Positions 21,181 to 34,495 of a stretch of 34,495 nt of DNA are shown here, in pieces. Below the pieces are notes generated by a model. It saw nothing but the letters and a program-made list of their open reading frames with translations, was not told the origin of the DNA and did no database searches. A program made the position numbers and the translations under genes. Location: IMG/VR virus record IMGVR_UViG_3300047561_001131, positions 1 to 34,495 of that record. The stretch is one strand, 5' to 3'. Within the stretch, counting starts at the first letter, position 1. Every line of letters starts with the position of its first letter. Source of the DNA: a virus. Its lineage: Duplodnaviria; Caudoviricetes.

Positions 21181-22596
21181 ATGGTTTGGGCTGGTGGGTC
21201 GTATACGAAAGGAAATAACGCAACTGGTGGTTGGACTGGCGATGCGTCGCTTGGTATCGGCATTGAGGCTGGTCGTCACGATACGCAGGATAATGACTTT
21301 GCTACAGGTATTAACCAATGCTTGAACAAGGATGGGTCTAACCCTGCTACTGGTCCTCTTAACGCAGGTGGCTTCAAGCTTACTAACGCAGCTGATGGCA
21401 CAGTAACCACAGACGCTACTACCCTTCGACAAGTTCAGGCACAAGCATACATTTGGTGCGGAACATCCGGTGGATCTGCCAATGCTCAAACTCTTACGCC
21501 ATCACCTGCTATTGCTGCGTATGCTGCTGGTCAGATGTTTCGCTTCATTGCTGGCTTTACAAGCACTGGCGCTTTAACGCTTCAGGTAAGCGGATTAGCA
21601 AGCCCTGTAACCTGCCTGATGAAGAACTCTAAGGTTGCGTTTGGCACCCTAGCTCCTGTCATGGCTGGCCTAACCTATGAGGCTCTTTACGATGGAACTA
21701 ATTTTCTTATCAGCGATTTACTTGAGTTAGGTCAATTTACTAACGATGCTGGCGCTGCACGTTTAAAGCTGTTCAAGTCTCGTGCAACTACGGCTGGAAC
21801 TAATACTATCGTTCAAAACGGCGATGGGTTGGGTCAGATTGATTTTTATGGCGCAAGTGGCAGTGAGTACACTCGTGGCGCATTTATTAACGCAACGGTA
21901 ACTGGAACTCCTGGCGCTACAAACGATATGCCAACGTCATTGACGTTTGCTACGGCGGCAGACGGTTCTGGAACACCAACGGAAAGAGCACGAATACTTC
22001 CATCAGGTGAAGTGTTAATTGGAACAACTACCTCAATAACTTCCGCCTACAAGTTACAAGTAGGAAGTGCCAGCGGTTCAAATTTGGCCGCTGTCATTGG
22101 AGGTTCTTCAGCTGTAGCTGATGGTGCTGCCTTAGCTATTTTTAACGGCGCAGCGGTTTCAGGACAAATAGGAAACTATTCAGCAATACAAGGTGGCGCA
22201 TACAATGGCGGCTTTACAGTAAAAAACTCTGGTAGTTCTTTGTATCTGATTGGAGTAACTGCCGCTGTTGGTACGCATTTCTTGAAATGGAATAACGTAT
22301 CCGGCGCTTGGACTTACGATACTTCATCCGCTCGATATAAGCAGGATATTGAAAACCTGCCTTATGGCCTTGATGAAGTGTTGGCAATGCGTCCTGTAAC
22401 ATTTACTTACAAAGCTGAACCAACTCGTCATGACGTTGGATTTATCGCTGAGGAGATGGAACAGGTAATTCCAGAAGTAGTAGCTAAAAATCTTGATGGT
22501 GAGCCTGATGCTATTAGTTATGACCGGCTCACATCTGTGTTGTGTAAAGCTATTCAAGAGCTTGAGGCACGAGTGGCCGCACTTGAGGGCGCATGA
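21181..22596 (+). CDS. Tail fibre with C-terminal intramolecular chaperone (Peptidase S74)
   Basis: DFATGINQCLNKDG anchor; SSARYKQDI...GFIAEE...PEVV...Y..L...L.KAIQEL; AGGAGG RBS. Confidence 0.9.
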   Translation: MVWAGGSYTKGNNATGGWTGDASLGIGIEAGRHDTQDNDFATGINQCLNKDGSNPATGPLNAGGFKLTNAADGTVTTDATTLRQVQAQAYIWCGTSGGSANAQTLTPSPAIAAYAAGQMFRFIAGFTSTGALTLQVSGLASPVTCLMKNSKVAFGTLAPVMAGLTYEALYDGTNFLISDLLELGQFTNDAGAARLKLFKSRATTAGTNTIVQNGDGLGQIDFYGASGSEYTRGAFINATVTGTPGATNDMPTSLTFATAADGSGTPTERARILPSGEVLIGTTTSITSAYKLQVGSASGSNLAAVIGGSSAVADGAALAIFNGAAVSGQIGNYSAIQGGAYNGGFTVKNSGSSLYLIGVTAAVGTHFLKWNNVSGAWTYDTSSARYKQDIENLPYGLDEVLAMRPVTFTYKAEPTRHDVGFIAEEMEQVIPEVVAKNLDGEPDAISYDRLTSVLCKAIQELEARVAALEGA

Positions 22597-23012
22597 AGCA
22601 GCTCAGGTTAGTCAGAGTTACAGAGCATAACGGCGCTACAATGGGCGTCCTCTGTATTGATGGCTCGCCTGAGTTAGTAACGCTGGAGGATCCCTGGCGA
22701 TACAACGAGAAGTTAATTAGCTGTATCCCAGTTGGTCGTTACAAATTAAAACTCCATCGTAGTCCTAAGTTTGGTCTGACCTACCAGATTATGGATGTGC
22801 CTGAGCGTAGCCAGATATTGATTCACGCTGGCAACACGCACAAGGACACCCATGGTTGTGTCTTGGTAGGTTTGCAGTTTGGCAAACTTGGAAGTGAATC
22901 AGCGATATTAGCGAGCAAGTCGGCGTTCCAAAAGTTCATGGAACTTATGGGGAACACTCCCGAAGCAGAGATTGTAGTTATAGATGCTTACGGTGGCGGG
23001 AGGGTACATTGA
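22593..23012 (+). CDS. DUF5675-family protein (candidate endolysin)
   Basis: T.G.L..DG, TLE.PW, SCIP.GRY, VP.RS.ILIH.GN..D..GC.LVG. Confidence 0.8.
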   Translation: MKQLRLVRVTEHNGATMGVLCIDGSPELVTLEDPWRYNEKLISCIPVGRYKLKLHRSPKFGLTYQIMDVPERSQILIHAGNTHKDTHGCVLVGLQFGKLGSESAILASKSAFQKFMELMGNTPEAEIVVIDAYGGGRVH

Positions 23013-23251
23013 CGGACGGAGATTTTACACAAATACGTTATTGGTTTGACCTTGCCATAAAAGCAATCATTGGTGTCGTCATATCCATTGTCGGCATGGA
23101 CTACAGGTCGGTTAAAAATTCACTTCATGAGCTTGAGCAATCTAAATATCAAGTGACGATGGAAGTGCAGATTCTCAAGGCCGAGCTTAACAACATCCAG
23201 TCTCAAATTGAGCGCATGGATAAGAAGCTCGACAAGGTACTGGAAAAATGA
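23009..23251 (+). CDS. Single-TM plus coiled-coil protein (holin/antiholin-like)
   Basis: Hydrophobic LAIKAIIGVVISIVG followed by heptads; located in the lysis cassette. Confidence 0.55.
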   Translation: MTDGDFTQIRYWFDLAIKAIIGVVISIVGMDYRSVKNSLHELEQSKYQVTMEVQILKAELNNIQSQIERMDKKLDKVLEK

Positions 23252-24060
23252 AATGGCTGTTGACGCTTATGGTGCTGACGTTAGCACCACAAGCTGTGGC
23301 AGCTCCCAGCCTATTGGCCATGTGTCACAAGGACTGGAACTGTGACGCAACGGTTAAGATGTACCGTAGCCATGATACGCTTTACCTTGGTTGGCTAACC
23401 AATACGTTTGGTGAAAAATGCTCCTGCCCTAAACGGCTCATGAGCGACGCTAGGCCAAAGGTTGTTCGGGTGCACCTGGCTAATGGTCCCTGCATGAGAA
23501 ACAAGCGCTGTGGCCGTTATGAGGCTTTCTACGGGTACAACAAGGTATCAGCGACCAGAGCCATCCTCCGTGGCGATACTAAGCTGATGGGATACTTTGA
23601 TAAGCAGTTAAATGACCTGGCTGTGATGTTGAACAGCTCGACTAACCTGACGTGTTACGTCAGTCCATGTTTGGAGTGTGACCTGAATGAAAGTGCCAGA
23701 AGAGTTCTCCTCAATAGGGTGTCTGCTGCTTTGCCTCAGTGTATTCCTGTGGACAATCCTCACTGGCAACGCTGTGCCAAGGGATACCATTGTGAAGGAC
23801 ACGGACAGGCTCCTACAGTGTCTCGACCGTGTATAGTGGACTTAGACGGCAAGGATGGCCGTACCCTTAACCTTAAGAAATGGGTAGACCGATACCGTAC
23901 GTGTGATTTAGCCTATTACTGGGAACCCTGGATGAACTGCATACGGGGTGGCTTTGTTGATCCACGGCGCAGGAACTGCAAGTACGATAGCGCCACGTTT
24001 ATTAGAACACGGAGAATCTTATGCCGGTACTTCTTGCATCCATTATTCGGCACCTGCTGA
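23248..24060 (+). CDS. Secreted cysteine-rich protein of unknown function
   Basis: Signal peptide MKWLLTLMVLTLAPQAVA; 18 Cys in 270 aa. Confidence 0.7.
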   Translation: MKWLLTLMVLTLAPQAVAAPSLLAMCHKDWNCDATVKMYRSHDTLYLGWLTNTFGEKCSCPKRLMSDARPKVVRVHLANGPCMRNKRCGRYEAFYGYNKVSATRAILRGDTKLMGYFDKQLNDLAVMLNSSTNLTCYVSPCLECDLNESARRVLLNRVSAALPQCIPVDNPHWQRCAKGYHCEGHGQAPTVSRPCIVDLDGKDGRTLNLKKWVDRYRTCDLAYYWEPWMNCIRGGFVDPRRRNCKYDSATFIRTRRILCRYFLHPLFGTC

Positions 24061-24206
24061 CCCTTGCGGCTGGTGGCTTGCTCACCATTGGCGTATCTGA
24101 GGCTGACGCTACCAACCTTGTAACTGCCGCTGAGCCGATTGTAGGTGGTGCGGTGTTGTACGGCCTTGGTCAGGCTTGGAGTTTCTTCGATAAGAAGAAG
24201 CGCTAA
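24021..24206 (+). CDS. Putative two-TM holin
   Basis: SIIRHLLTLAAGGL...IVGGAVL...WS..DKKKR with a basic C-terminus. Confidence 0.7.
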   Translation: MPVLLASIIRHLLTLAAGGLLTIGVSEADATNLVTAAEPIVGGAVLYGLGQAWSFFDKKKR

Positions 24207-24586
24207 AAAAACCTACTGTTAATTCGTAGGTTGTAGCGTTTCTTTGCGAAGCGTTTAAGTTCCTCCGGGTCAGTCTTGAGCTTTCCAACTCTTGCTCTAA
24301 TTGCCGATACCTTTGAACTGTCATCAAAAAGCATATCGCAAATGTAGGCTAGGTTGAACGGTGCTGCTTTTAGCTCGTAGAAAAACCAGTCTAACCCTTG
24401 AGTGTAGGTAGCTGACAGATCAGGCGTTGGGGCAACGTAATCGGTAATGGCCTTATCAATGACCGCCAACCACAGTAACCCTTCAGGTGTGTTTACTTCT
24501 TCTGGTCCTGGGTCGGACTCGATGTCTGCGTAACCTTTGGTTTTACCAACGTTAGCCAATCTTCGAGGAACATTGTCACTAGCCAT
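24203..24586 (-). CDS. Conserved phage protein (start uncertain)
   Basis: PE..LW.AVI..AI.D...WF...F...CD pattern; overlaps the resolvase 3' end. Confidence 0.6.
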   Translation of the reverse strand: MASDNVPRRLANVGKTKGYADIESDPGPEEVNTPEGLLWLAVIDKAITDYVAPTPDLSATYTQGLDWFFYELKAAPFNLAYICDMLFDDSSKVSAIRARVGKLKTDPEELKRFAKKRYNLRINSRFF

Positions 24587-24846
24587 GGTTTGTGGTTTTT
24601 CCGGTGTACACATATTGGGGTCTTGTCCTTGCAGTCATTGAGCGACTGCTCCATTGCCTTGTCGATGTTGAGCGACTGAACAACCTTACATTCGATGTGG
24701 TAATCGCTTAATTCGGTGCACACTACATCTGGGTCGCCATTAGAGCCACAAAACTGCTGGCCTCTACGAGCTTCAAACCCATGCTCCTTTAGCTTATTAG
24801 CCAGCTCTCGCTCGCCTCTGGCACCCTTGGCTCTACTGTTTACCAT
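24493..24846 (-). CDS. Holliday junction resolvase (Hjc-like PD-(D/E)xK)
   Basis: NSRAKGARGERE, PDVV, HIECK, HRKNHKPWLVTM. Confidence 0.85.
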   Translation of the reverse strand: MVNSRAKGARGERELANKLKEHGFEARRGQQFCGSNGDPDVVCTELSDYHIECKVVQSLNIDKAMEQSLNDCKDKTPICVHRKNHKPWLVTMFLEDWLTLVKPKVTQTSSPTQDQKK

Positions 24847-25226
24847 TAGTCTACCTGCTTAATTGTAAACGTTTCTTTCAAAACGCTTTTTAACTTTTTA
24901 AGCTCTTTAAGTTTGCGGCGCACATGAGCATGAAACGTGTGTAGTTTTGATTCTTTTGCCTCAAGCCTTGTTTCGTACTGCTCTAAGCGAAACCGAGCGA
25001 TTCGTAACTGAGTCCATTGAGTATGGATATAATCAGCCTCATCAATAACTATGTTTTGCTTACCTAACCTATATCCAACGAGGAACCCATCTTTGATAGC
25101 GTCGTAATGACTACCTTTTTTTATTGATGAATAGTTTTCAATCATAAACTGAGCGGCAAGGTCGTCCAAATGAACTAAATCATCCTGCCATCGTTCATGT
25201 TGTGTTTTGTCTGTGCTGTATTGCAT
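24846..25226 (-). CDS. Hypothetical protein with coiled-coil C-terminus
   Basis: GAGGAGAC RBS before ATG at 25226; coupled on both sides. Confidence 0.6.
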   Translation of the reverse strand: MQYSTDKTQHERWQDDLVHLDDLAAQFMIENYSSIKKGSHYDAIKDGFLVGYRLGKQNIVIDEADYIHTQWTQLRIARFRLEQYETRLEAKESKLHTFHAHVRRKLKELKKLKSVLKETFTIKQVD

Positions 25227-25834
25227 TAGTAATAAGTCTCCTCTTTGTCTGCTACTGACCATCGGTCACAAGTTTCGGCGGTGTAAACCACGTCCACGGT
25301 TTTATAGTTGCGGGTGGCAGCGTCTGGAACGTTTCCAATAAAGAATCCGTCTTTGAAGAGGACTCTATTGGTTGGCAGACATCCAATTTGTCCGTTTTCC
25401 AGCAGAAGTATATGGGCGCATTTATTTTGGTCGGGATGTAGCAACCAGCCAGACTTAGCATCACAATCAGGAAGCCAATCCACTGTGCAATAATAAGTGG
25501 CGCTAAGCTTAGTTTTGTCACGGAGTATCGCCTCACACTGGTAGTCTCTTAGCAGGTCAAATACGGTAACTACCGGCTTGTAGCTAAAGCAGTCCCAAAG
25601 CTGTAAATCCTCGACCGACCGCTCGTCTACAACCGCAGGAGCATGATGACACAACCAGTGAAGCGGCACATGACGAAAATGAGCACCCGATTTAAGCAGA
25701 ACATGGAAGTGCAATGCTCGTCCCTTCATGGACTGCACCGCAAACGCTACCCCCTCCTCAAAGCCTGACTCCTCACCACTTGTGAGGTACTCCCGTTTAA
25801 TCCAAACCTTGAGTGGGGGTATATCAGCGTTCAT
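25226..25834 (-). CDS. Conserved phage hypothetical protein
   Basis: V..EYL, GRAL.F.VLL..GA, LQLWDCFSY, K..H...L.NG.....P.NR motifs familiar from aquatic phages. Confidence 0.75.
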   Translation of the reverse strand: MNADIPPLKVWIKREYLTSGEESGFEEGVAFAVQSMKGRALHFHVLLKSGAHFRHVPLHWLCHHAPAVVDERSVEDLQLWDCFSYKPVVTVFDLLRDYQCEAILRDKTKLSATYYCTVDWLPDCDAKSGWLLHPDQNKCAHILLLENGQIGCLPTNRVLFKDGFFIGNVPDAATRNYKTVDVVYTAETCDRWSVADKEETYY

Positions 25835-26016
25835 TTCTTTGTTTCCTTGTTAAGCCGCTCTTGAGTCAGTGCCTCACTGCTCCACCGAATGATGGCGGCG
25901 TCCTGACTGATCGTGGCTGGGTCTATCTTGCCTCGCTCTACAGACGCCTTGTGCTGTGCTTCCAACTTGCGCCACAACTGGTCCTTAAATAGTTCACTCA
26001 CTGGCTTGATCATCAC
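25831..26016 (-). CDS. Hypothetical protein
   Basis: 61-aa ORF with GAGG upstream, coupled. Confidence 0.5.
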   Translation of the reverse strand: MMIKPVSELFKDQLWRKLEAQHKASVERGKIDPATISQDAAIIRWSSEALTQERLNKETKK

Positions 26017-26254
26017 AACGCCTCACTACAATACCCTGACCCGACATATTGTGAATCTCGACTACTTCACAGTGCAGAACGCTATCCAAAAGCAGCTTCG
26101 CCATAACATCTGGCGAAACGTGGTAGTTCTCATCGATTAACGCTCTCAGTTCTGGCCGTGGCTCGTACTGAAATTGCCAATCGTCGTTACGGCGTATGTG
26201 CAAAACCACTTCCCATTTGCCGTCTATCACCCTAAAAAGACTATAAAGTTTCAT
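25994..26254 (-). CDS. Hypothetical protein
   Basis: 86-aa ORF with GAGGA RBS. Confidence 0.6.
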   Translation of the reverse strand: MKLYSLFRVIDGKWEVVLHIRRNDDWQFQYEPRPELRALIDENYHVSPDVMAKLLLDSVLHCEVVEIHNMSGQGIVVRRCDDQASE

Positions 26255-26262
26255 AAAGTCCT

Positions 26263-26583
26263 CTAGAAAGGTATATCGTCATCTTCAAACTTAACCGCTT
26301 TTACGGTCTGTTTGACCACAGCGCTAAGGGAGCCTGATTCCACGGCGGCCCACTTATGTTCCTCACGGTCAGCGGCGTTCCCACTGTTCCAGGCGATAGC
26401 TTGCTCCAACAGTTCAACCAAGGCTCGTAAATCGTCCTGGTACAGGTATTTAGTGTCAGTCCATGTGTTGGTCTGCTTATTAAGGTAGGATTTTCTCATT
26501 GTAAATGAGACCCTTCCCTCGTCGTTTTGCCATGCGGCAATATCGATTCCCTTGTTTCGCCATGTTTTAGCTGGTTTCGCCAT
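26263..26583 (-). CDS. SSB-like / PC4-like ssDNA-binding protein
   Basis: Acidic tail EDDDIPF; I.IAAW.N...SF...KSY.....W..T.Y core. Confidence 0.7.
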   Translation of the reverse strand: MAKPAKTWRNKGIDIAAWQNDEGRVSFTMRKSYLNKQTNTWTDTKYLYQDDLRALVELLEQAIAWNSGNAADREEHKWAAVESGSLSAVVKQTVKAVKFEDDDIPF

Positions 26584-26591
26584 AAATCCCC

Positions 26592-26620
26592 TTGATAAAG
26601 ACTACAAAAGCACTTAGTAT
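26592..26620 (+). promoter_or_regulatory. Candidate sigma70 promoter for the rightward island
   Basis: TTGATA-17-TAGTAT in a divergent intergenic gap. Confidence 0.5.
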
Positions 26621-26654
26621 CTACAAGAACCGTACAGAAACCGCAAGGTAATTT

Positions 26655-26843
26655 ATGACAGATGAAGAAAAAAACAATTACGTTCCGATAAGCGCAGCTA
26701 AAACCTATTTTGCCGTTTCGGATATGACGATACGCACCTGGCTAAAAGCTGGCTGTCCTCATTTAAAGCTCAAGACTCACCGCCGTGTAAAAATTGCAGA
26801 CATGGAAGCATGGCTAAAGGAGCGTCATGATAAAACAGCATAA
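26655..26843 (+). CDS. Excisionase/MerR-like winged HTH DNA-binding protein
   Basis: AAKTYFAVSDMTIRTWLKAGCP...RVKIADMEAWL. Confidence 0.8.
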   Translation: MTDEEKNNYVPISAAKTYFAVSDMTIRTWLKAGCPHLKLKTHRRVKIADMEAWLKERHDKTA

Positions 26844-27117
26844 ACCCATCATCACTGACCTGCATCAGCGGCTCTACAGCATCCTGCCAGAGTATGCGCC
26901 GATCTCAACGCATGAGGGCGACCGCACTGGTACGTTTAAGGCTGTGGACAGTGACGGGAATGTTTTCCTGGTTGACTATGAGGCTGGTGAAAATGGCCTT
27001 AGGCGCAATAAACGTTTCTTCTGCGACTACGGACAACTGGTGGCTAATTCATCGCTTAAAAGCGAGCCTAAGAGGTGTGCGCCGAGTGAGAATTGGACTT
27101 TGACGCTGCTTGGATAA
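26827..27117 (+). CDS. Hypothetical protein
   Basis: 96 aa, AAGGAG RBS, coupled to the HTH gene. Confidence 0.65.
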   Translation: MIKQHKPIITDLHQRLYSILPEYAPISTHEGDRTGTFKAVDSDGNVFLVDYEAGENGLRRNKRFFCDYGQLVANSSLKSEPKRCAPSENWTLTLLG

Positions 27118-27128
27118 TGCTGTAAATT
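27100..27128 (+). promoter_or_regulatory. Sigma70 promoter with no downstream ORF
   Basis: TTGACG (27100-27105), 17-nt spacer, TAAATT (27123-27128). Confidence 0.6.
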
Positions 27129-27133
27129 GAAGG

Positions 27134-27205
27134 AGACACGTTCATCGGTTTGTCTCCATTGATTTTGTCGTGGCCGGTCAGAGTTTCCCCCTGACCGGCT
27201 TTTTT
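27134..27205 (+). ncRNA. Candidate ~70-nt antisense small RNA
   Basis: Bounded by a promoter and an intrinsic terminator; carries two segments complementary to start regions of - strand genes. Confidence 0.5.
27173..27205 (+). terminator. Intrinsic terminator
   Basis: GCCGGTCAG / CTGACCGGC 9-bp stem, loop AGTTTCCCC, then TTTTTT. Confidence 0.85.
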
Positions 27206-27206
27206 A

Positions 27207-27464
27207 TTATTCAATCCCAAAAAGTGTGCTGACGTGCTCCACCGTCCATAGAATGCCGTCAACCTGGCCGTCCTGAAAGCCAGTAGACTTAATTGGCGGC
27301 ATCATACCGTTCACCCTGCCAGCGAACTGTTGAAGATAGCGCAACACCTGTTTGGCTCCCTCCTCGTATGCGGCTTGGTAATCCGTCAGGTCCTGCGTCC
27401 TATTCGGATGCGGTAGAAACGACTCACTAAAGGTAATTGCGTCCTGAGTTATTTGGCTCATCAT
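27207..27464 (-). CDS. Hypothetical protein
   Basis: 85 aa, GGGAAAC upstream, coupled. Confidence 0.6.
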   Translation of the reverse strand: MMSQITQDAITFSESFLPHPNRTQDLTDYQAAYEEGAKQVLRYLQQFAGRVNGMMPPIKSTGFQDGQVDGILWTVEHVSTLFGIE

Positions 27465-27664
27465 TTTAGTTTCCCGTGAAAGTTGATCCGATTGCGTAAA
27501 GCCTCTTCCAACAATGTGGTGAAGCTAATTTTATCCTTTGAGCACACTGACTTGCAGCGCCACAACAGATCCACGTTAATGAATATAGTGTGTCGCTTGT
27601 AACCAGGTCGTGGGGAATCAAAGCGTGGTCGGCAATAGTCAGCCGGTGGTATATCGTTACTCAT
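27461..27664 (-). CDS. Ribbon-helix-helix DNA-binding protein
   Basis: KRHTIFINVDLLWRCK...ISFTTLLEEALR strand-helix-helix pattern. Confidence 0.6.
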   Translation of the reverse strand: MSNDIPPADYCRPRFDSPRPGYKRHTIFINVDLLWRCKSVCSKDKISFTTLLEEALRNRINFHGKLK

Positions 27665-28496
27665 TGAAAGCCTCATCGATGCAGCTAGTCAGTTTCTCAA
27701 GCCGGATGGGTGACTTCCAGTGTGTCTCGGTCAGCCGTTTGGCGTTATTGGCTACCAAATACGTTTCAGCGATAACCAGCTTGTCACCCTGTAGCGTTTC
27801 TGTGTTGTAGTAGGTTGTCGTGGCCCTGGACTTCTTGGCCTTTGGCTTAACTTCCATAAATTCCGGCAACTCTTCTATTTTTTCGAATACTTCGCCGGTT
27901 TCTACGTCTACAACTGCCTCCGCTGGCTCAACCTTCGTCCCTATAACCTTTCCCGTCTTTTCAGAGACGATTAAAGCCTCTTGGGGGATGGTTGTGACTC
28001 GTGGAGGTGCGAACTCAGCTGGCATTTCCTCTTGGGTATACAAACCGCCAAGTTCCTGCACGAAAGCCTCTCTTATGGCCAGACTTTTCGCACACTTACT
28101 AAGCATAACTGACGGCATCGTTTTCCATATAGGACTCGGTTTGCCGTATTCGTTCATGTAAGCAGTAGCTACAGCCGGAAAACGCCTATCCTTGCGGTAC
28201 ACTTTCGCCGTGGCCGAAACGAGTTGCTTATTGTCCCACTCAAACTCAACTTCCATGCCGTCAAACATAGGGTGCGAGTTAGCGATACGCAGGAATCCGT
28301 TAATCCCTGTCATAAGTTGCAAGCGGCCACCTGCCTTGATCGCCCACACCTCTTTGGTTACGGGATTCAAGCCGGTGCTTTTAACGATCTCCGCAAATAG
28401 TGCGAACTCGCTATCGGTCAACCCTGGTGCAACGGTGTTGCGGAGTGTGTTGAGCATCTCCACGTTGTTTTGTGTTATTAGTGCTTTATCGTTCAT
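27657..28496 (-). CDS. recT: RecT/Bet single-strand annealing recombinase
   Basis: TGLNP..KEVW.IK, MTGINGFLRIA, SATAKVYRKD, W..MP.VML.KCA...A.R.AF, GLYT.EEM. Confidence 0.9.
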   Translation of the reverse strand: MNDKALITQNNVEMLNTLRNTVAPGLTDSEFALFAEIVKSTGLNPVTKEVWAIKAGGRLQLMTGINGFLRIANSHPMFDGMEVEFEWDNKQLVSATAKVYRKDRRFPAVATAYMNEYGKPSPIWKTMPSVMLSKCAKSLAIREAFVQELGGLYTQEEMPAEFAPPRVTTIPQEALIVSEKTGKVIGTKVEPAEAVVDVETGEVFEKIEELPEFMEVKPKAKKSRATTTYYNTETLQGDKLVIAETYLVANNAKRLTETHWKSPIRLEKLTSCIDEAFNE

Positions 28497-28506
28497 TGTT
28501 GTCTCC

Positions 28507-28896
28507 TTACTTGGAATTAAGCGTTAAAAAATCGGCCACCATTTGACGGTACAGCCGCTCCATAGGCCACTTTCGAGCCTTGGCGATCTCCACCAGCTGC
28601 CGATATTGCGCTTGGCTTACGTTAGGCACGTTGAGCTGTAAAAATGGCTTTTCAAAGTTAGTTACAGGCAATTTCACCATTTTTTTAGCGTGTTTTTTTG
28701 GCTTTTCAGCGCTAGGACGTTGGCAGTTGCTTTGACAGGTGCGGCACCAATATTGCAAGCCGTCAGCGGTGCGCTTGCACTTATTGAAAGCCGACGTTTC
28801 AAGCGTATTTTTGCACTTGCTACAATGTTTGGTAGCTTTTAGTTCAATCCACTCGGTCGGTGGCGTTGGTCTAAATAGTTTTTTGAATATATTCAT
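28507..28896 (-). CDS. Zn-finger plus ribbon-helix-helix protein
   Basis: CSKC...F.K.....DGLQ.WC..C followed by QLNVPNVS...L...A......ME...R; GGAGAC RBS before ATG at 28896. Confidence 0.65.
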   Translation of the reverse strand: MNIFKKLFRPTPPTEWIELKATKHCSKCKNTLETSAFNKCKRTADGLQYWCRTCQSNCQRPSAEKPKKHAKKMVKLPVTNFEKPFLQLNVPNVSQAQYRQLVEIAKARKWPMERLYRQMVADFLTLNSK

Positions 28897-28930
28897 GGTT
28901 GTCTCCAATAAAATTACATCTTACATCTTA

Positions 28931-29434
28931 CTAGCCTAATTTCTTAGACAGTGAAAGTACCTTTCTAGCGTATTCTTTACCCTCCTTGCAGTTAATTTTG
29001 CCACAGTTGTACACGGTTAAAGCGTCTCGGATGTTGCCAGTGCGCTCCAGTTCCTCCGACAGTATACGAGCACCACACCGCACATTGTGAGTTGGATCCC
29101 ATAGCCTGTCAGGGTGCCACCCACAGCGGCGAGCGTTAAACGGCATAACCTGAGACAGGCCACGAGCACCTACATGACTCTCAGCTTTCACATTCCCGCC
29201 GCTCTCCACCTGTACGACGGCATGATACACGTTCCGATCTAACCCATAAGCGTCCGCCGCCCTGCTCACCTCTTGACGTATAACAGCCTTAGAATGACCG
29301 CTACTGAGTCCAAAAAAGCGAAGGGTGTGGTAGGATAGGTCAGCTGGTAATCGTACAGCACAACCAGTTAGGGCGATTATAACAACCCCACCGATCCAAC
29401 CTGGATCGGCAGGGCTACCCTTGACGGCTTTCAT
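28931..29434 (-). CDS. Membrane-anchored lytic transglycosylase (SLT)
   Basis: QVESGG, GARGLSQVMP, NVRCGA..L, YNCG, EYARKV; N-terminal hydrophobic helix ending ALTGC. Confidence 0.88.
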   Translation of the reverse strand: MKAVKGSPADPGWIGGVVIIALTGCAVRLPADLSYHTLRFFGLSSGHSKAVIRQEVSRAADAYGLDRNVYHAVVQVESGGNVKAESHVGARGLSQVMPFNARRCGWHPDRLWDPTHNVRCGARILSEELERTGNIRDALTVYNCGKINCKEGKEYARKVLSLSKKLG

Positions 29435-29598
29435 CGTCGTTTTCCAAGGGATTGAACCTGCTCGATAGGGTCATTCCCAAGGATCTGAGTCTGAATACCG
29501 ATCCAGCACGTTACAGCACCCACGAAAAAGGCTACATGGAGCAACGAAACGATGATTCCAGTAGGCGTGAAAAGTAGTTGTTTGATTTGATCGATCAT
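29431..29598 (-). CDS. 55-aa membrane protein; not in the ORF track
   Basis: MIDQIKQLLFTPTGIIVSLLHVAFFVGAVTCWIG...; AGGTGA RBS; ATGA overlap with the SLT gene. Confidence 0.7.
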   Translation of the reverse strand: MIDQIKQLLFTPTGIIVSLLHVAFFVGAVTCWIGIQTQILGNDPIEQVQSLGKRR

Positions 29599-29606
29599 AA
29601 AGTCAC

Positions 29607-29795
29607 CTATTTGAGTTCGGTAGTCGGTTCAGTGCAGCTTACGAAGTAGCATTTTAAAGGCACCTTGTTTTCGACGTTAGTACGGCTTGATTCCTGCCTT
29701 TCATCGACACGGTACAGGCCAACACGGCCACCTAGTTCAATACCGGTACAGCCAGAAACAAGGCACAGCACAGCACAGCATATAAACACTTTCAT
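29607..29795 (-). CDS. Small lipoprotein
   Basis: MKVFICCAVLCLVSG-C lipobox; AGGGGAAACT RBS before ATG at 29795. Confidence 0.7.
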   Translation of the reverse strand: MKVFICCAVLCLVSGCTGIELGGRVGLYRVDERQESSRTNVENKVPLKCYFVSCTEPTTELK

Positions 29796-29844
29796 AGTTT
29801 CCCCTATTTTTACGTTAAACAGATCCCGTACTGGCAATCAGAGA

Positions 29845-29860
29845 TTCCCCCGAAGGGGAA
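29845..29860 (-). terminator. cUUCGg tetraloop hairpin (stabiliser or weak terminator)
   Basis: TTCCCC-TTCG-GGGGAA on the - strand just after a stop codon; no U tract. Confidence 0.5.
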
Positions 29861-29867
29861 CCGCTCA

Positions 29868-30188
29868 TTACCAGGGCAGTTCCATTCCCTTGATCGGTTG
29901 ACCCAAGGCATCGTTAGGAACGACCCTTTGCGTGGTTGTCGTCGTTGTAGCGTCACGATCGCCTAACACCCTTCCCCAAGTGTCAGGGCGCTCCCGAGTT
30001 TCCGTCACGACACTGTAGCCAGTCCCCCACGGCCCTCTGTCCCTTGGAACGGGTAAAACGGGTTGAACGGCTATCGGGTAGGATGGTTGGACGCCTATGG
30101 CCAGATCGGGCCTGTAGTTTCCCTCATCGTCGAATTGAGCCAGGGCTACCCCTGGCAACATTGCAAGTGTGAAAAGTATCGCTTTCAT
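29868..30188 (-). CDS. Secreted protein
   Basis: Signal peptide MKAILFTLAMLPGVALA; AAGGGGGA RBS. Confidence 0.7.
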   Translation of the reverse strand: MKAILFTLAMLPGVALAQFDDEGNYRPDLAIGVQPSYPIAVQPVLPVPRDRGPWGTGYSVVTETRERPDTWGRVLGDRDATTTTTTQRVVPNDALGQPIKGMELPW

Positions 30189-30197
30189 ATATCCCCC

Positions 30198-30641
30198 TTA
30201 ATTAAACCATCGTGATTGAATACCTCGACCGAATTCCCGCTTAAAATAGGTGCGCTTGTCGTCCCCCGTAGAACGTTCACACCATGCCCACAATACCGCT
30301 GCAAGTACGGCGCAAGCCGCTGCACGATATTCGGTTGGAAAGTATTGGCCGGTGCAGTAATCGAAACGATCTGTTTCGGCGTTGTAGGTCAATCGACCAC
30401 TGAAGGCGTGTTTCGTAGCCTTGAGAATATCGTCGGCCGTAATGGTAACGGAACGGCGCACTGCATACAGTAACGCCCTTGCATCTCGACCCTCACGCAA
30501 TATCTCACGGTATTCGGTGTTAAAAGACTTACGGCCTTCCGTGTCGCTCCAACTGTCAAAGTAGTTTCGAGCGTCAATCCCGCTACGTTGTGAGATGTGA
30601 CGTGAAAGAGCGTCGAGTATTTGATCCTTTGTTAGTTCCAT
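30198..30641 (-). CDS. Early hypothetical protein
   Basis: 147 aa, AGGGGAAAC RBS. Confidence 0.75.
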   Translation of the reverse strand: MELTKDQILDALSRHISQRSGIDARNYFDSWSDTEGRKSFNTEYREILREGRDARALLYAVRRSVTITADDILKATKHAFSGRLTYNAETDRFDYCTGQYFPTEYRAAACAVLAAVLWAWCERSTGDDKRTYFKREFGRGIQSRWFN

Positions 30642-30673
30642 ATTGTTTCCCCTAAAAATTAACTACTCTATGG

Positions 30674-30703
30674 ATGATGCCATACATCCCACATAGGATG
30701 CAA
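30674..30703 (-). promoter_or_regulatory. Candidate early sigma70 promoter
   Basis: TTGCAT-18-CATCAT with TG extension; CATCC/GGATG inverted repeat overlapping the spacer. Confidence 0.5.
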
Positions 30704-30706
30704 GTA

Positions 30707-30829
30707 CTACCATGAAAGAAATAGGACCAACCCTGCAAAGAGGGACAGTCCGATTAGTACGCTGTAAATGGCGTCAGTTAGGAATGACCCGGATACGGTG
30801 TATTCTTGTCGCAATCGTGCTTTATTCAT
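30707..30829 (-). CDS. 40-aa single-TM peptide; not in the ORF track
   Basis: MNKARLRQEYTVSGSFLTDAIYSVLIGLSLFAGLVLFLSW; AAGGGGGAAC RBS. Confidence 0.65.
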   Translation of the reverse strand: MNKARLRQEYTVSGSFLTDAIYSVLIGLSLFAGLVLFLSW

Positions 30830-30845
30830 ATGGTTCCCCCTTTAA

Positions 30846-31070
30846 CTAAAACCAATCCCCGTTTTCTTTGAGCAGGCTCACGGCGTCCTCAAAAGCGTCT
30901 GTGGGAATCTTGCGATCAATCTTGGTCACTTCCTGAAACAACTTAACCCCAACGTCTGTATATGATATCCGAGCCTGATAAGTTGTTGGGTAATTATTCC
31001 AAAACACTGGAAACACTGTGATCACTGCCTTGCAATGTCGTGCGTCGGATTTAGTGAATGTTTCTTTCAT
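30846..31070 (-). CDS. Early hypothetical protein
   Basis: 74 aa, AAGGGGAAAC RBS, first gene after the promoter. Confidence 0.65.
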   Translation of the reverse strand: MKETFTKSDARHCKAVITVFPVFWNNYPTTYQARISYTDVGVKLFQEVTKIDRKIPTDAFEDAVSLLKENGDWF

Positions 31071-31118
31071 ATCGTTTCCCCTTAATCAGTAAGCGTTAAT
31101 CACTCACTCAATATACTC

Positions 31119-31147
31119 AGTATATATGTAGGATGTAGCACATGCAA
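31119..31147 (-). promoter_or_regulatory. Strong early sigma70 promoter
   Basis: TTGCAT-17-TATACT at the head of the leftward arm. Confidence 0.75.
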
Positions 31148-31401
31148 TATATTATTCGGGGTAATGTAAAAAAATCTTAAGAATGTCTTGAATAAAAGTG
31201 AGATCCGTTTCGTCATGCTGAAACAAGTTGTGACAGTGATGTAACCCTCTCGATGTTGTCTGCCGTAAGTAGTTACCGTATCGTTATACATACTGATGTA
31301 TGAGTCTTATTATATAAGGTTAGGTATATAACGTGCGGCAACGTGCAACAGATAGACACTTTGTTAATGATAAGTGGTGGGTAGGTAGTTATAGGCACGC
31401 T

Positions 31402-31617
31402 ATGCCTTACCCTAAGGATAACCTGTATAGGCGTATACGTTACACTATGGGGCTAACACAACGTAGGGCGGCCGCACTATTCGGTATGTCACATCATGCG
31501 TGGTGCTACCGTGAGCGGGTGAAACGTATGTACCATCTCGCAGAGATACTAGCGTTACGTGAGGTAAGCGGTATGAGTGACAGGGACTTCATGAAATTAA
31601 TGAGTGAGTGTGCATAG
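31402..31617 (+). CDS. XRE/Cro-like HTH regulator (start uncertain, 31333 or 31402)
   Basis: RRIRYTMGLTQRRAAALFGMS...W..RER pattern; divergent from the early arm. Confidence 0.65.
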   Translation: MPYPKDNLYRRIRYTMGLTQRRAAALFGMSHHAWCYRERVKRMYHLAEILALREVSGMSDRDFMKLMSECA

Positions 31618-32160
31618 TTACTACCTACCGAGAATTAGAAAACTAGTTAGGTATGTAAATTAGGTAGTGATTTCAAGGGTATAAACCTGGGGAACCTATT
31701 AGAGTTTTTCGTTTTCAAAACGAATTTAAAAACAAGTGAGGTACCGGTTACATGTATATCCACATTCTCATATAAAATTCCTATACCCTATTTGAAACAT
31801 TGTTCTATAAGTTGTTTCTTCGAAAGAGTTAGTAACGATAGATTAGGTTATAGGTTAGCGATGAAAGAGTTAGGTTGTTCTTAGAGTATAGGTGGAGCTT
31901 TGCTTGGCGTAAGGTAGGAGAAAGTTACGACTGGCAGGGAAGAATGAAGCTAAGCAGAGAACGAAGTAGAGATCTGAAATATATTTATAAGATTAATAAT
32001 GTTTTTTTATAATAGAATAGAGAAAGAACGTAACGAGAAGTGAGGTAGTTCTTTGTGTAGGTGAAGCTGCGTTAGAAGGGGGGTGTAAAAGAAGGACTTC
32101 CCTATTAGGGGGGGTTACATCACACCTTGTCAAGGGGGTATTTTCAAATTATTTTTATTA
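31618..32160. other. Long non-coding, strand-skewed region (candidate origin or packaging/terminus region)
   Basis: About 540 bp without an ORF, immediately upstream of terS; C-poor + strand, AT-rich core near 31975-32020. Confidence 0.45.
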
Positions 32161-32625
32161 GTGAGTTATATGGATGAGTTAGATACGAAAATAGTTGAGG
32201 TAGAAACTCAAAAAACTAGTGAACTAAGCGTTCAAAATGATGGAATTGAGGTTGAGGTCATACATAAGCAGAGTCCAAGTCATACCAAATGTGACCGTAT
32301 TGGGGCTCAGATTAGGGATATGGCACGTATGGGGTTAACTCGTGGGAATGTCGCTATAGCGGCTCGTATAAGCCCGTATATCTTGGATAAGTACTATGCC
32401 GATGAGTACGCTGCTGGAGAGGGTGAGATGCGTAAGGGATTAGCTACGGTGGCTATGGCTGAGGCTTTGAATGGGAACACTGCTATATTGCTTCACTTGG
32501 TTAAGACTAAGCTTGGTTGGAATGAAACACAGCTTATCCAGCACAGTGGTGAGGTGAGGAGTGTCGTTAGTGCGAAACCGTTATCCAAAGAAGAGTTTGC
32601 CGAAAAATTCCTTAACAAAGAATAA
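32161..32625 (+). CDS. terS: Terminase small subunit
   Basis: HTH (MARMGLT...VA.AARIS) followed by ALNGN...L.HLVKTKLGW.E...HSGEV. Confidence 0.78.
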   Translation: MSYMDELDTKIVEVETQKTSELSVQNDGIEVEVIHKQSPSHTKCDRIGAQIRDMARMGLTRGNVAIAARISPYILDKYYADEYAAGEGEMRKGLATVAMAEALNGNTAILLHLVKTKLGWNETQLIQHSGEVRSVVSAKPLSKEEFAEKFLNKE

Positions 32626-32803
32626 GAAGATAGCAGAAACGTACAGAACATGGTATTTCGTATGTCCGGGTTGCGGTAAGGCTACAATCGTTGTGACTGA
32701 GTTTGAAGCGGTGCCATGTGGCGGTAAGTGGTGCCGTGGGTTGGTCGATTTACGAGCTAACCAGATAACTCAGGACGAGTACAACCGGAAGTGGGGAATA
32801 TGA
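32561..32803 (+). CDS. Small Zn-ribbon protein (start uncertain)
   Basis: CPGC...CGGKWC. Confidence 0.5.
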   Translation: MSLVRNRYPKKSLPKNSLTKNKKIAETYRTWYFVCPGCGKATIVVTEFEAVPCGGKWCRGLVDLRANQITQDEYNRKWGI

Positions 32804-33216
32804 GCAAGACACCTGAACAGTTGGCAAAGGAGTTTTTTGAAAATTGGCAGCCAGAAAAGCCTAAGTACATCCGTCCGAAAGCAAGACAATATGCTTTAGA
32901 AAAAGTAACCGAATGTTTCCTCGCTGGCTACAAGGCGGGTCAAGAGCATCCATTTCAATTTCAAACAAAGATGTGGGTTGATCCGATGGGACCTCAAAAC
33001 CGATGGATCAGCGTTAAGGATAGGTTGCCGGAAGAAGGTCAAGACTGCATCTTCTACGTTGATTTTGTCGATAAATGGGACAAGGGAAGTGAAAGAATTA
33101 ACTTTCAAGAGATAGGTGTATTTAACGGCAAAGATCGTTTTTATCACCGCTCCCACACCGATTTAGACAGAGTGACCTATTGGATGCCTTTGCCAAAGTC
33201 ACCGGAGGAGGCATGA
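32800..33216 (+). CDS. DUF551-domain protein
   Basis: WISVKDRLPE...VTYWMPLP. Confidence 0.85.
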   Translation: MSKTPEQLAKEFFENWQPEKPKYIRPKARQYALEKVTECFLAGYKAGQEHPFQFQTKMWVDPMGPQNRWISVKDRLPEEGQDCIFYVDFVDKWDKGSERINFQEIGVFNGKDRFYHRSHTDLDRVTYWMPLPKSPEEA

Positions 33217-33410
33217 GCAAATGGATCAGCGTTAAGGAGCGTTTGCCCGAAGATGGGGATGATTTATCAATCATGCTCGTATGGCGTAGCATTGAACATG
33301 ATTACGATACCGTAAGATGGAGATACCAGCAGGGATGGGATTGCGTTGTTCAAGATAAATCAACAATTACCCACTGGATGCCGCTACCTAAGCCACCGGA
33401 GGACAAGTAA
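33213..33410 (+). CDS. DUF551-domain protein
   Basis: WISVKERLPE...ITHWMPLPKPP; GGAGG RBS. Confidence 0.88.
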   Translation: MSKWISVKERLPEDGDDLSIMLVWRSIEHDYDTVRWRYQQGWDCVVQDKSTITHWMPLPKPPEDK

Positions 33411-33610
33411 TGGGCATTGAACACCGCATGAAGGATGAGACAGAAACTACACGCCGGTGTCCTTGGTGCAATCACGTTTCCACTGCCAGCGTCCAAGATG
33501 GCAGGGATTTCTATTTCTACTGCCAAAACCCTAATTGTAAGGTAGAGCGCATATACGGCGACAACGCTGTAATGGTTGGCGGTGGGCCGGAGATTAAACA
33601 CTATGGATAA
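33410..33610 (+). CDS. Small Zn-ribbon protein
   Basis: CPWC...CQNPNC. Confidence 0.6.
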   Translation: MGIEHRMKDETETTRRCPWCNHVSTASVQDGRDFYFYCQNPNCKVERIYGDNAVMVGGGPEIKHYG

Positions 33611-33764
33611 CAGCGGTCATTGGAAATGTCCCGAATGTGGCTCACTGTGGGACATAACTACAAACCTCTGTGTTGAGTGCGAAAAGGAGTTCGTTAAGGA
33701 GTTATACGAGCTTAGTTGGGAGCAGTTTTGGGCTGAATGTAACGAGCTAAAGAATGGATGCTGA
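33603..33764 (+). CDS. Small Zn-ribbon protein
   Basis: CPEC...CVEC; GGAG RBS; overlaps the terL start. Confidence 0.55.
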   Translation: MDNSGHWKCPECGSLWDITTNLCVECEKEFVKELYELSWEQFWAECNELKNGC

Positions 33765-34495
33765 GTTACAAGCTAACGAGCAGATCGTATGGTGCCCTCA
33801 ACCTGGAAGCCAGGAGGCATTAGTAAACTGCCCTATTACGCTTATCGGTTTTGGTGGAGCGCGAGGCGGCGGTAAAACCGACGGAGTTTTAGGTAAATTT
33901 GCTGTAGATCAAGATAGGTTTGGCAGTGACTTCAATGCGATATTTTTTCGAAAAGAACTCCCTCAAGCGGATGACCTTATCGAGCGAGCTAAGCAAATCT
34001 ACCTACCGCTCCAAGCACACTGGCAAGATCAGAAAAAGCAGTTTACTTTCATTAACGGCGGTCGGTTGCGGTTTCGTCCGTTGGCTAACGATCAAGATGC
34101 TGAAAAGTTTCAAGGACAAAACCTAAGCCATGCAGCCATAGAAGAGGCAGGTAACTACTCTGACCCATCCTGTATATGGAAGCTGTTTGGAGCCTTGCGA
34201 GGTAAGGGCGGTGGCCAGGTTATACTTACCTTTAACCCAGGCGGTGTAGGTCACGGTTGGCTTAAAGAGCTGTTTATTAAGCCAGCGCCAAAAGGGATGA
34301 AAATCCTACAAAAACAGTTACCCAACGGAAGTAGCTTTGACTACATTTATATTCCAAGTAGGGTACACGATAACCAGATTCTGCTCGCTCGTGATCCTGA
34401 GTATATCAACCGATTGCACATGGTAGGCTCGCCAGAGCTTGTTCGTGCATGGCTTGAAGGAGACTTCGAAATCCATGAAGGCAGCTATTTTCCTG
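33754..34495 (+). CDS. terL: Terminase large subunit, N-terminal part (runs off the end; continues at the window start)
   Basis: My translation: MDAELQ...WCPQPGSQ...FGGARGGGKT (Walker A); in frame with the ORF at 6. Confidence 0.95.
   Translation, partial: MDAELQANEQIVWCPQPGSQEALVNCPITLIGFGGARGGGKTDGVLGKFAVDQDRFGSDFNAIFFRKELPQADDLIERAKQIYLPLQAHWQDQKKQFTFINGGRLRFRPLANDQDAEKFQGQNLSHAAIEEAGNYSDPSCIWKLFGALRGKGGGQVILTFNPGGVGHGWLKELFIKPAPKGMKILQKQLPNGSSFDYIYIPSRVHDNQILLARDPEYINRLHMVGSPELVRAWLEGDFEIHEGSYFP
34076..34495. repeat. Terminal direct repeat, right copy
   Basis: 413 of 420 bases identical to 1-420. Confidence 0.97.

Follow-up and report, generated by a model that had tools for sequence, protein, structure and literature searches.

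We propose that a short intergenic element of this phage genome encodes a trans-acting small RNA of 70 nt which would dampen the translation of most promoter-proximal early genes by pairing with their ribosome-binding sites (RBSs), and we give this reading a probability of roughly 0.6. The element is complementary to early RBSs and selective for the genes between 27464 and 31070, its promoter-hairpin-terminator anatomy is conserved, and its seeds are specific for the lineage. An earlier note had suggested a dual-seed anti-RBS RNA that silences the whole leftward arm and may serve as an immunity switch. The core of that suggestion is supported by selectivity, conservation and the co-variation of seeds and RBSs, but neither the whole-arm scope nor the immunity role found support.

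The window, i.e. the whole stretch of DNA that was analysed, comprises an entire virus record, 34,495 bases long and classed as linear. Positions 1 to about 420 recur, with a few base differences, at 34076-34495, and given this terminal repeat the genome is probably circular. The structural genes (terminase, portal, capsid, tail fibre) point rightward and occupy 1-24206, and a leftward arm runs from 31070 to 24203 through small unknown genes, a transglycosylase, a Zn-finger gene, Bet/RecT, an ssb-like gene (recognised by eye) and RusA. Neither a replication initiator nor a polymerase was identified in the window, and the region 25200-31300 had no match among annotated phages. Nested in the leftward arm is a rightward pair of genes, one xis-like with a helix-turn-helix (HTH), the other a 96-aa orphan (p96), and the RNA element lies between the stop codon of p96 and that of a leftward 85-aa gene (27207). 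The features of this setting are as follows.

26592-26646, both strands: face-to-face, overlapping promoter-like pair (pattern scan and conservation)
26655-26843, plus strand: xis-like helix-turn-helix gene upstream of the RNA (phrog_66, E 6e-5; HTH_17 below the cut-off)
26827-27117, plus strand: p96, the 96-aa orphan gene directly upstream of the RNA (49 homologs, no fold match)
31119-31147, minus strand: likely early promoter TTGCAT-17-TATACT heading the target arm (single match of the pattern on the minus strand in 27200-31500)

The rightward member of the promoter-like pair (TTGATA-17-TAGTAT, 26592-26620) would serve the xis-like and p96 genes, and the leftward member (TTGCGG-17-TAGATA, 26646-26618) the ssb-like distal genes; for the latter, TTG(C/T) followed by TA 16-17 nt on was seen by eye in 13 sequences, with L056 not parsed. 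The pair is compact, lying within 26584-26654 with -10 elements that overlap on opposite strands, the leftward one usually without its last T, and the xis-like HTH protein may switch it. A conserved HTH-like gene at 31333-31617 (plus strand; weak HTH_31 match), divergent from the likely early promoter, is a candidate repressor of the early arm. The lytic-transglycosylase gene (28931-29434, minus strand) has a signal-like N terminus and sits within the early arm near genes for small membrane or lipoprotein-like products; the RNA is not predicted to target it (-2.9 kcal/mol). As for p96, none of the 49 homologs is named beyond 'hypothetical'. Its model, a helix with a three-stranded sheet (pLDDT 78), gave no Foldseek match at E<=0.001, the best VIA match has Z 3.6 and the Atlas matches stay below 0.9. 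A role of p96 as an RNA chaperone thus found no support in the fold searches, although absence of a match proves nothing.

The predicted RNA has a simple anatomy, and a direct sequence check found the promoter, seed 1, the loop and the target sites quoted in the earlier note all in place.

27100-27128, plus strand: sigma70-like promoter TTGACG-17-TAAATT (pattern and conservation)
27132-27157, plus strand: 5' hairpin GGAGAC/GTCTCC, able to hide seed 1 (fold; the arms covary in L031)
27134-27205, plus strand: predicted small RNA of about 70-72 nt (folding and same-shaped units in relatives)
27139-27158, plus strand: seed 1, with the core TTTGTCTCCA at 27149-27158, antisense to the GGAGACAA-type RBS and start codon
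27173-27205, plus strand: intrinsic-terminator-like hairpin and U tract (stem 27173-27181/27191-27199)
27182-27190, plus strand: seed 2, the open 9-nt terminator loop AGTTTCCCC, antisense to the GGGGAAAC-type RBS

The -35 of the RNA promoter falls within the last codons of the 96-aa gene and the -10 in non-coding DNA; the start of the RNA was assumed to lie 6-8 nt past the -10. Promoter-like sites are no rarity here (11 observed in 22000-34495, 16.9 in shuffles), so that the promoter taken alone is not above chance and its support is its conservation across relatives. The RNA from 27134 to 27208 folds at -25.8 kcal/mol (z -3.9) with the 9-nt loop open, and units of the same shape, 64-74 nt long, were found in 25/25 sequences folded. 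Seed 2 costs only 0.7 kcal/mol to open. The cost of opening GTCTCC depends on where the transcript begins, i.e. 5.8 kcal/mol from 27129, 2.3 from 27134 and 0.2 from 27136, and is 4.4 kcal/mol in a read-through transcript. In L031 both arms of the 5' hairpin have changed together, to GGTGAC/GTCACC. The terminator has a G+C-rich, covarying stem followed by a U tract in all complete sequences folded; a pattern scan did not list it because its loop is longer than the 8 nt allowed. Rfam covariance models gave no match at E<=1 in the window, and only tRNAs in five relative loci. Four RNA runs cover small shares of the window, with scattered, diverged contig pieces in 16-27 of 30 bins; such contigs cannot give start, end, strand or level and speak neither for nor against a transcript.

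The sites to which the two seeds are complementary coincide with the starts of early genes.

27468-27475, minus strand: predicted target, RBS of the 85-aa gene 27207-27464 (loop, -10.7 kcal/mol)
28490-28506, minus strand: predicted target, RBS and start of the Bet/RecT-like gene (seed 1, -12.2)
28892-28907, minus strand: predicted target, RBS and start of the Zn-finger gene 28507-28896 (seed 1, -11.0)
29796-29804, minus strand: predicted target, RBS of gene 29607-29795 (loop 9/9, -11.1)
30189-30214, minus strand: possible target, start region of gene 29868-30188 (-10.6, an irregular long duplex without the loop)
30645-30652, minus strand: predicted target, RBS of gene 30198-30641 (loop, -12.9)
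30833-30840, minus strand: weaker predicted target, RBS of the 40-aa gene 30707-30829 (loop with one G-U, -7.5)
31074-31081, minus strand: predicted target, RBS of the first early gene 30846-31070 (loop, -11.5)

The matches reported earlier were reproduced to the letter: the loop AGTTTCCCC at 27182-27190 is complementary over 9/9 positions at 29796 and over 8/8 at 30645, 31074 and 27468, while seed 1 matches all 16 nt of 28892-28907 with two single bulges and 28490-28506 in blocks of 7+8 nt; GTCTCC also occurs at 25236. GGGGAAAC occurs four times on the minus strand (three early RBSs and once in the element itself) and never on the plus strand. When both strands of the genome were scanned with the loop, the best five non-self sites were the RBSs of the genes starting at 29795, 30641, 31070, 30829 and 27464; with seed 1, the two named targets come third and fourth among non-self sites, and the two sites above them lie outside start regions. 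A repeat search of 26500-32200 found the RBS type as the sole repeat family. Pairing is predicted to be weak at the three partial matches, with -5.3 kcal/mol at 26587 and -7.6 at both 25841 and 25236. Targets lie 0.3-4 kb from the RNA, several of them are genes for small unannotated proteins, and the exact blocks are 7-11 nt long. The predicted duplexes span the SD and often the AUG, and a duplex over these elements as a rule blocks initiation.

Selectivity was assessed with a home-made pairing model (not IntaRNA) that combines the RNAduplex energy with the opening energies of both partners, applied to 45-nt windows (-30 to +15) at hand-picked heuristic gene starts, 47/49 of which were scored, the coordinates of the other two being off the start codon. 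The proximal leftward starts (27464-31070) have a mean of -9.0 kcal/mol with 7/11 at or below -10, the remaining four pairing weakly (above -8). Late starts average -4.8 kcal/mol (0/23 at or below -10), distal leftward starts from the ssb-like gene to 24613 average -4.9 (0/7), and other rightward starts -4.9 (0/6). The enrichment over late starts and shuffles that the earlier note had called for is therefore present. Proximal and late starts differ at p=0.003 with the RNA, and at p=0.065 with a generic 16S tail motif as an anti-SD control; none of 60 RNAs with shuffled single-stranded parts attained the observed mean (-8.7 vs -5.5 +/- 1.1). Even the hairpin alone separates early from late starts with its native loop (p=0.002), whereas four generic anti-SD loops fail to do so (p 0.13-0.24). 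The caveat that all SD sequences are alike is answered by the match continuing into the spacer, AAAC or ACAA. The RNA would target the promoter-proximal early arm, not the entire leftward arm: the seven distal starts pair no better than late ones, and the distal genes appear to have their own promoter. The distal start 25226 of the window, at its corrected coordinate, scores -7.6 kcal/mol, and in four relatives 1/22 distal starts reached -9 or better, a strong site in L026 (-12.4).

Relatives were drawn from viral and metagenome contigs. The alignment of 29 sequences contains the window, 16 loci and 12 of 21 further loci, after exclusion of five duplicates of viral contigs, two loci cut inside p96 and two weak matches. 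Twenty of the 29 have the window-type RNA and seven fall into the distant clade C; of the remaining two, one is truncated by the end of its contig and the other, L038, carries a different gene at this place. The loop TTCCCC is kept in 20/20 window-type sequences, many of which are near-identical; eight of the more distinct stems were compared. Among 10 aligned terminators, 96% of the cells are paired and 7/10 pairs have changed on both sides, as against 23-46% pairing in slid controls; the shuffle control may be inflated by related sequences. Six G-U cells occur among the stem pair types when read on the plus strand. TTGAC is kept in 11/14 aligned sequences, and in 10 of those 11 TAnnnT follows 17-18 nt on, with six different inner triplets; note that TTGAC falls on a TTG leucine codon, which accounts for 18% of the leucine codons in eight genes of the window. 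L029, L030, L031 and L056 have a weak form of the promoter, and in L034-L037 its last T is missing. A search of viral contigs for the loop-plus-U-tract pattern found 15 loci, six of the window's family and nine that share no protein with the window. The element represents a real, conserved and uncatalogued family of predicted phage RNAs, and the comparison of sequences gives good evidence that it would pair with early RBSs.

Five more distant lineages have an RNA of the same shape in the same slot, with other seeds that mostly match their own early RBSs. The clade C unit consists of TTGATT-17-TA... followed by 68-71 nt with a 5' hairpin, the linker CCCCTTAGTTG and a terminator with a variable loop; its loop drifts, its seed sits in the linker, and the early genes of this clade have CAACTAAGGAGATAC or AAGGGGACAA sites that are predicted to be paired over up to 18 nt. 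L038 has a 67-nt unit (TTGATT-17-TATGAT, seed GTCATGTCTCC) that is separated from p96 by an initiator-like gene; since the promoter stays with the RNA despite the inserted gene, the unit need not form the 3' end of the p96 transcript. The inserted gene (L038:5166-5855) encodes 229 aa with short internal repeats and has no match in the window or in the other loci compared. In L085, L087, L088 and L090 the unit was found in 4/4 cases by position and promoter pattern; L089 is cut inside the unit. The linker seed looks ancestral because it is present in all lineages, and the loop seed would then be an addition of the window's lineage.

Several other features of these lineages deserve mention. Clade C has a second tandem unit (L033:4660-4727, L034:10391-10458, L035:1176-1243, L036:2201-2267, L064:708-777 and L067:372-441, plus strand) that follows the first and is made up of a promoter-like TTG..16..TG-n-TAT(T/G)GT and 67-70 nt with a 5' hairpin, a C-rich linker and a terminator; against its own early starts this second RNA reached -9 or better in just 2/50 cases. 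A minus-strand tRNA-Asn stands between the 85-aa gene and the RNA unit at L033:4730-4805, L034:10461-10536 and L038:6076-6150, and likewise in L087, L088 and L090; L036 additionally has a tRNA-Cys, and tRNAs are absent from the close relatives scanned. The spacer between p96 and the RNA unit in L085 (6400-6600) is AT-rich and repeat-rich, with an ATAT run and ATAATTAGAT repeats, and is a possible origin.

If the RNA reads RBSs by base pairing, seeds and RBSs should differ together between lineages, and this expectation of the earlier note was supported in cross-lineage pairing matrices, with the reservation that the lineages are few and related and were counted without tree-based control. For clade B (L030, L031, L056, L058-L063) the contigs lack most of the early arms. 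In the 12 x 10 RNA-by-start matrix two starts were miscalled and one gene was dropped. The RNAs of clade A give -7.6 to -9.5 with the starts of their own clade and -4.7 to -6.5 with those of clade C; for the clade C RNAs the ranges are -6.5 to -10.3 with C starts and -4.8 to -8.5 with A starts. The window RNA scores -8.8 on clade A (27/46 at or below -9), -5.8 on clade C (6/50) and -5.8 on L038 (0/8), and the L038 RNA -9.7 on its own starts, -5.3 on clade A and -6.0 on clade C. With L038 included, the matrix is diagonal for 5/5 RNAs tested, the clade C RNAs being best on C. In a six-lineage matrix, for which every second start of clades A and C was used, own starts are best for L034, L038, L087 and, weakly, L085; they are tied for the window and not best for L090. 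The window RNA pairs equally with the L089 set (-8.6) and its own starts (-8.7), and the L090 RNA has better scores on sister lineages than on its own starts.

Own early starts were also compared with control genes, although for the later-added lineages the complementarity had been seen in the same outputs that were used for testing, so that these tests are not strictly blind. The comparison gave p=0.003 in L026, 0.011 in L038, 0.03 in L028 and 0.05 in L034. The L087 RNA scores -9.3 on early starts taken from the sister contig L089 vs -3.9 on 11 other genes taken from L088 (p=0.0014). The difference is not significant in L033 (p=0.36, with one control gene) nor, by energy, in L085 (-4.6 early vs -4.0 control, p=0.37) and L090 (-7.9 vs -7.0, p=0.29). 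The longest exact match is equalled in at most 26/1000 shuffles in 11/14 phages, and is weak in L010r (435/1000), L038 (62) and L090 (46). Individual substitutions tell the same story in part. In L001/L023 the recT RBS is GGGGAACA in place of GGAGACAA, and seed 1 is GTTTCC, which restores the pairing. In L029, where 0/8 starts have GGAGAC, a second TTCCCC replaces GTCTCC; the L029 RNA pairs weakly with the starts of its own genome (-6.4), and that of L031 fails to discriminate between clades. Mismatches between RNAs and targets show no G-U bias (40 G-U, 56 A-C and 96 transversions in 14 phages).

On these grounds we infer that the RNA is made as a discrete transcript, likely from its own conserved promoter at 27100, and perhaps in addition by read-through from the xis-p96 unit, the RNA then forming the end of that transcript, in which case seed 1 is predicted to be less open (4.4 vs 0.2-2.3 kcal/mol). 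Pairing in trans would start at the open loop or the linker, seed 2 serving the GGGGAAAC sites and seed 1 the GGAGACAA sites together with the AUG. The SD and often the AUG would then be covered in about seven of the 11 proximal early genes, which would block ribosome loading and likely damp the first wave of phage proteins as a group; the ssb-RusA genes, with their separate promoter, and the late genes would be spared. Since the early promoter and the RNA promoter both look sigma70-like, the RNA would accumulate after entry and act as a delayed brake. Early transcripts may in addition cross the locus, because the minus strand has no U tract past the hairpin, and as perfect antisense they could titrate the RNA and add a threshold. 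We offer a wider version of this model tentatively, as a serious possibility that may well fail: first-wave genes would bear a private extended-RBS barcode, and a co-evolving modular sRNA (linker seed, added loop seed, the tandem of clade C) would end the early phase in the manner of T4 RegB but by base pairing, with read-through titration as a threshold timer.

The same pairing could have another role, and this is the strongest of the alternatives although we consider it unlikely. The RNA would silence the early arm in a carrier or plasmid-like state, or block superinfecting kin with the same RBSs, like C4. Its promoter looks constitutive, heteroimmunity would follow from clade-specific seeds, the order of small genes, bet and a xis-like gene is lambda-like, and in L038 an initiator-like gene with repeats adjoins the RNA; that gene, however, is unmatched in the window. 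The immunity switch of the earlier note becomes less likely because no tyrosine integrase (PF00589) or resolvase-type recombinase (PF00239) was matched in the genome, in searches whose controls matched in 14 and 12 of 14 genomes. Nor was p96 matched, as a prophage copy, in genome contigs; the capsid protein had one match in genome contigs, a 6-kb contig of an unclassified MAG.

It is improbable that the element is an ordinary terminator, the 3' end of the xis-like/p96 unit, in which the RBS-like stretches are remnants of duplicated early starts (by descent or RecT-type recombination) that pair with nothing. The element does close a rightward operon that converges on the 85-aa gene, its motifs share a DNA strand with the RBS repeats, the promoter by itself does not exceed chance and the G-U bias is absent. 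Against this, the loop has stayed the same on a changing stem, terminator loops without a seed drift, the seeds follow the RBS class, and promoter, length and fold are kept in lineages of unrelated sequence, even with a gene between the unit and p96. Slightly less probable still is that the minus strand does the work, the RBS-like motifs at the end of the early transcript, GGGGAAAC in a GGAAA-type loop, binding or titrating a protein that recognises early RBSs. The minus-strand version of the hairpin also folds (z -6.2), and a motif read by protein would account for the absent G-U bias; but the U tract and the promoter are on the plus strand in every lineage, the six stem G-U cells fit the plus strand, the motif is in the linker and not in the loop in other lineages, and fold searches with p96 found no candidate RNA-binding protein. 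A minus-strand ORF of 25 codons behind seed 1 (27068-27145) was rejected as a gene, as it meets a stop after seven codons in L027, L028 and L055. Least probable of all is that a real RNA acts mainly on host mRNAs with similar RBSs, as the phage sRNAs PreS and VpdS do (PMC12197685) and as the promiscuity of C-rich seeds would allow, or that pairing protects or stabilises early mRNAs, for the seeds track the phage's own RBS motifs across lineages and the predicted duplexes lie over the SD and often the AUG.

We return to the anti-RBS sRNA and compare it with known systems. The phage antisense RNAs sar, OOP and aQ are encoded opposite their target. The present RNA, in contrast, is intergenic, with targets 0.3-4 kb away and partial complementarity. 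Like P22 sar, lambda OOP and aQ, it would be a short phage antisense RNA that represses phage genes post-transcriptionally, but these have one target each (PMC12197685), as opposed to 7-8 predicted targets with partial pairing. There is a further likeness to C4 of P1/P7, a trans-acting phage RNA of about 77 nt with two exposed seeds that blocks translation at an RBS (PMC5320573; PMC12197685), and whose seed and target differ together between P1 and P7 (PMC5320573). Firstly, however, C4 has three stem-loops, P1-P3, and is cut by RNase P from a precursor (PMC5320573), as opposed to two predicted hairpins with their own promoter and terminator. Secondly, both C4 loops act on the ant mRNA of the immunity system, while here each seed would serve a separate RBS class in several genes. 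No antirepressor was found among 37 ORFs compared with PHROGs (best five families per protein) or 24 compared with Pfam, most targets being unannotated.

Host RNAs of the S. aureus RsaE/Rsa family and RNAIII also pair with several SDs through an unpaired UCCC in a hairpin loop (PMC3861533). The window RNA likewise has an open, conserved UCCC loop with five complementary RBS sites. These RNAs are host-encoded and target host genes, whereas here a phage-private, extended RBS changes with the seed, and an Rfam scan of the window found no sequence or model homology to them. The cuckoo RNAs of Alphaproteobacteria have a fixed anti-SD loop on variable stems, and their tandem units recall the clade C pair, but their loop CCUCCUCCC on 2-4 hairpins (PMC4615179) is absent here in the sequences and folds examined. 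In T4, RegB and RegA inactivate many early mRNAs via a motif in the SD region; these are proteins, RegB cutting GGAG/U (PMC3014915), while here the reader would be a base-pairing RNA. By analogy, the predicted RNA would thus resemble C4 and the UCCC-loop sRNAs in action and RegB in logic.

Literature searches, limited to the main text of open-access papers, turned up no phage RNA directed at an RBS type common to many of its own early genes. The phage antisense RNAs reviewed in the available text of PMC12197685 have one phage target each, or host genes, and 38 sRNAs without function in its Table S1 may bear on novelty. Even in T4 the shut-down of early promoters is described as 'not completely understood', with RegB acting on SD motifs (PMC3014915). 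An RNA that covers an entire class of the phage's own RBSs would, if true, be a new route to temporal control. The seed/RBS variants from six lineages are natural compensatory pairs, and orthogonal seed/RBS pairs of this kind could act as multi-gene translational switches.
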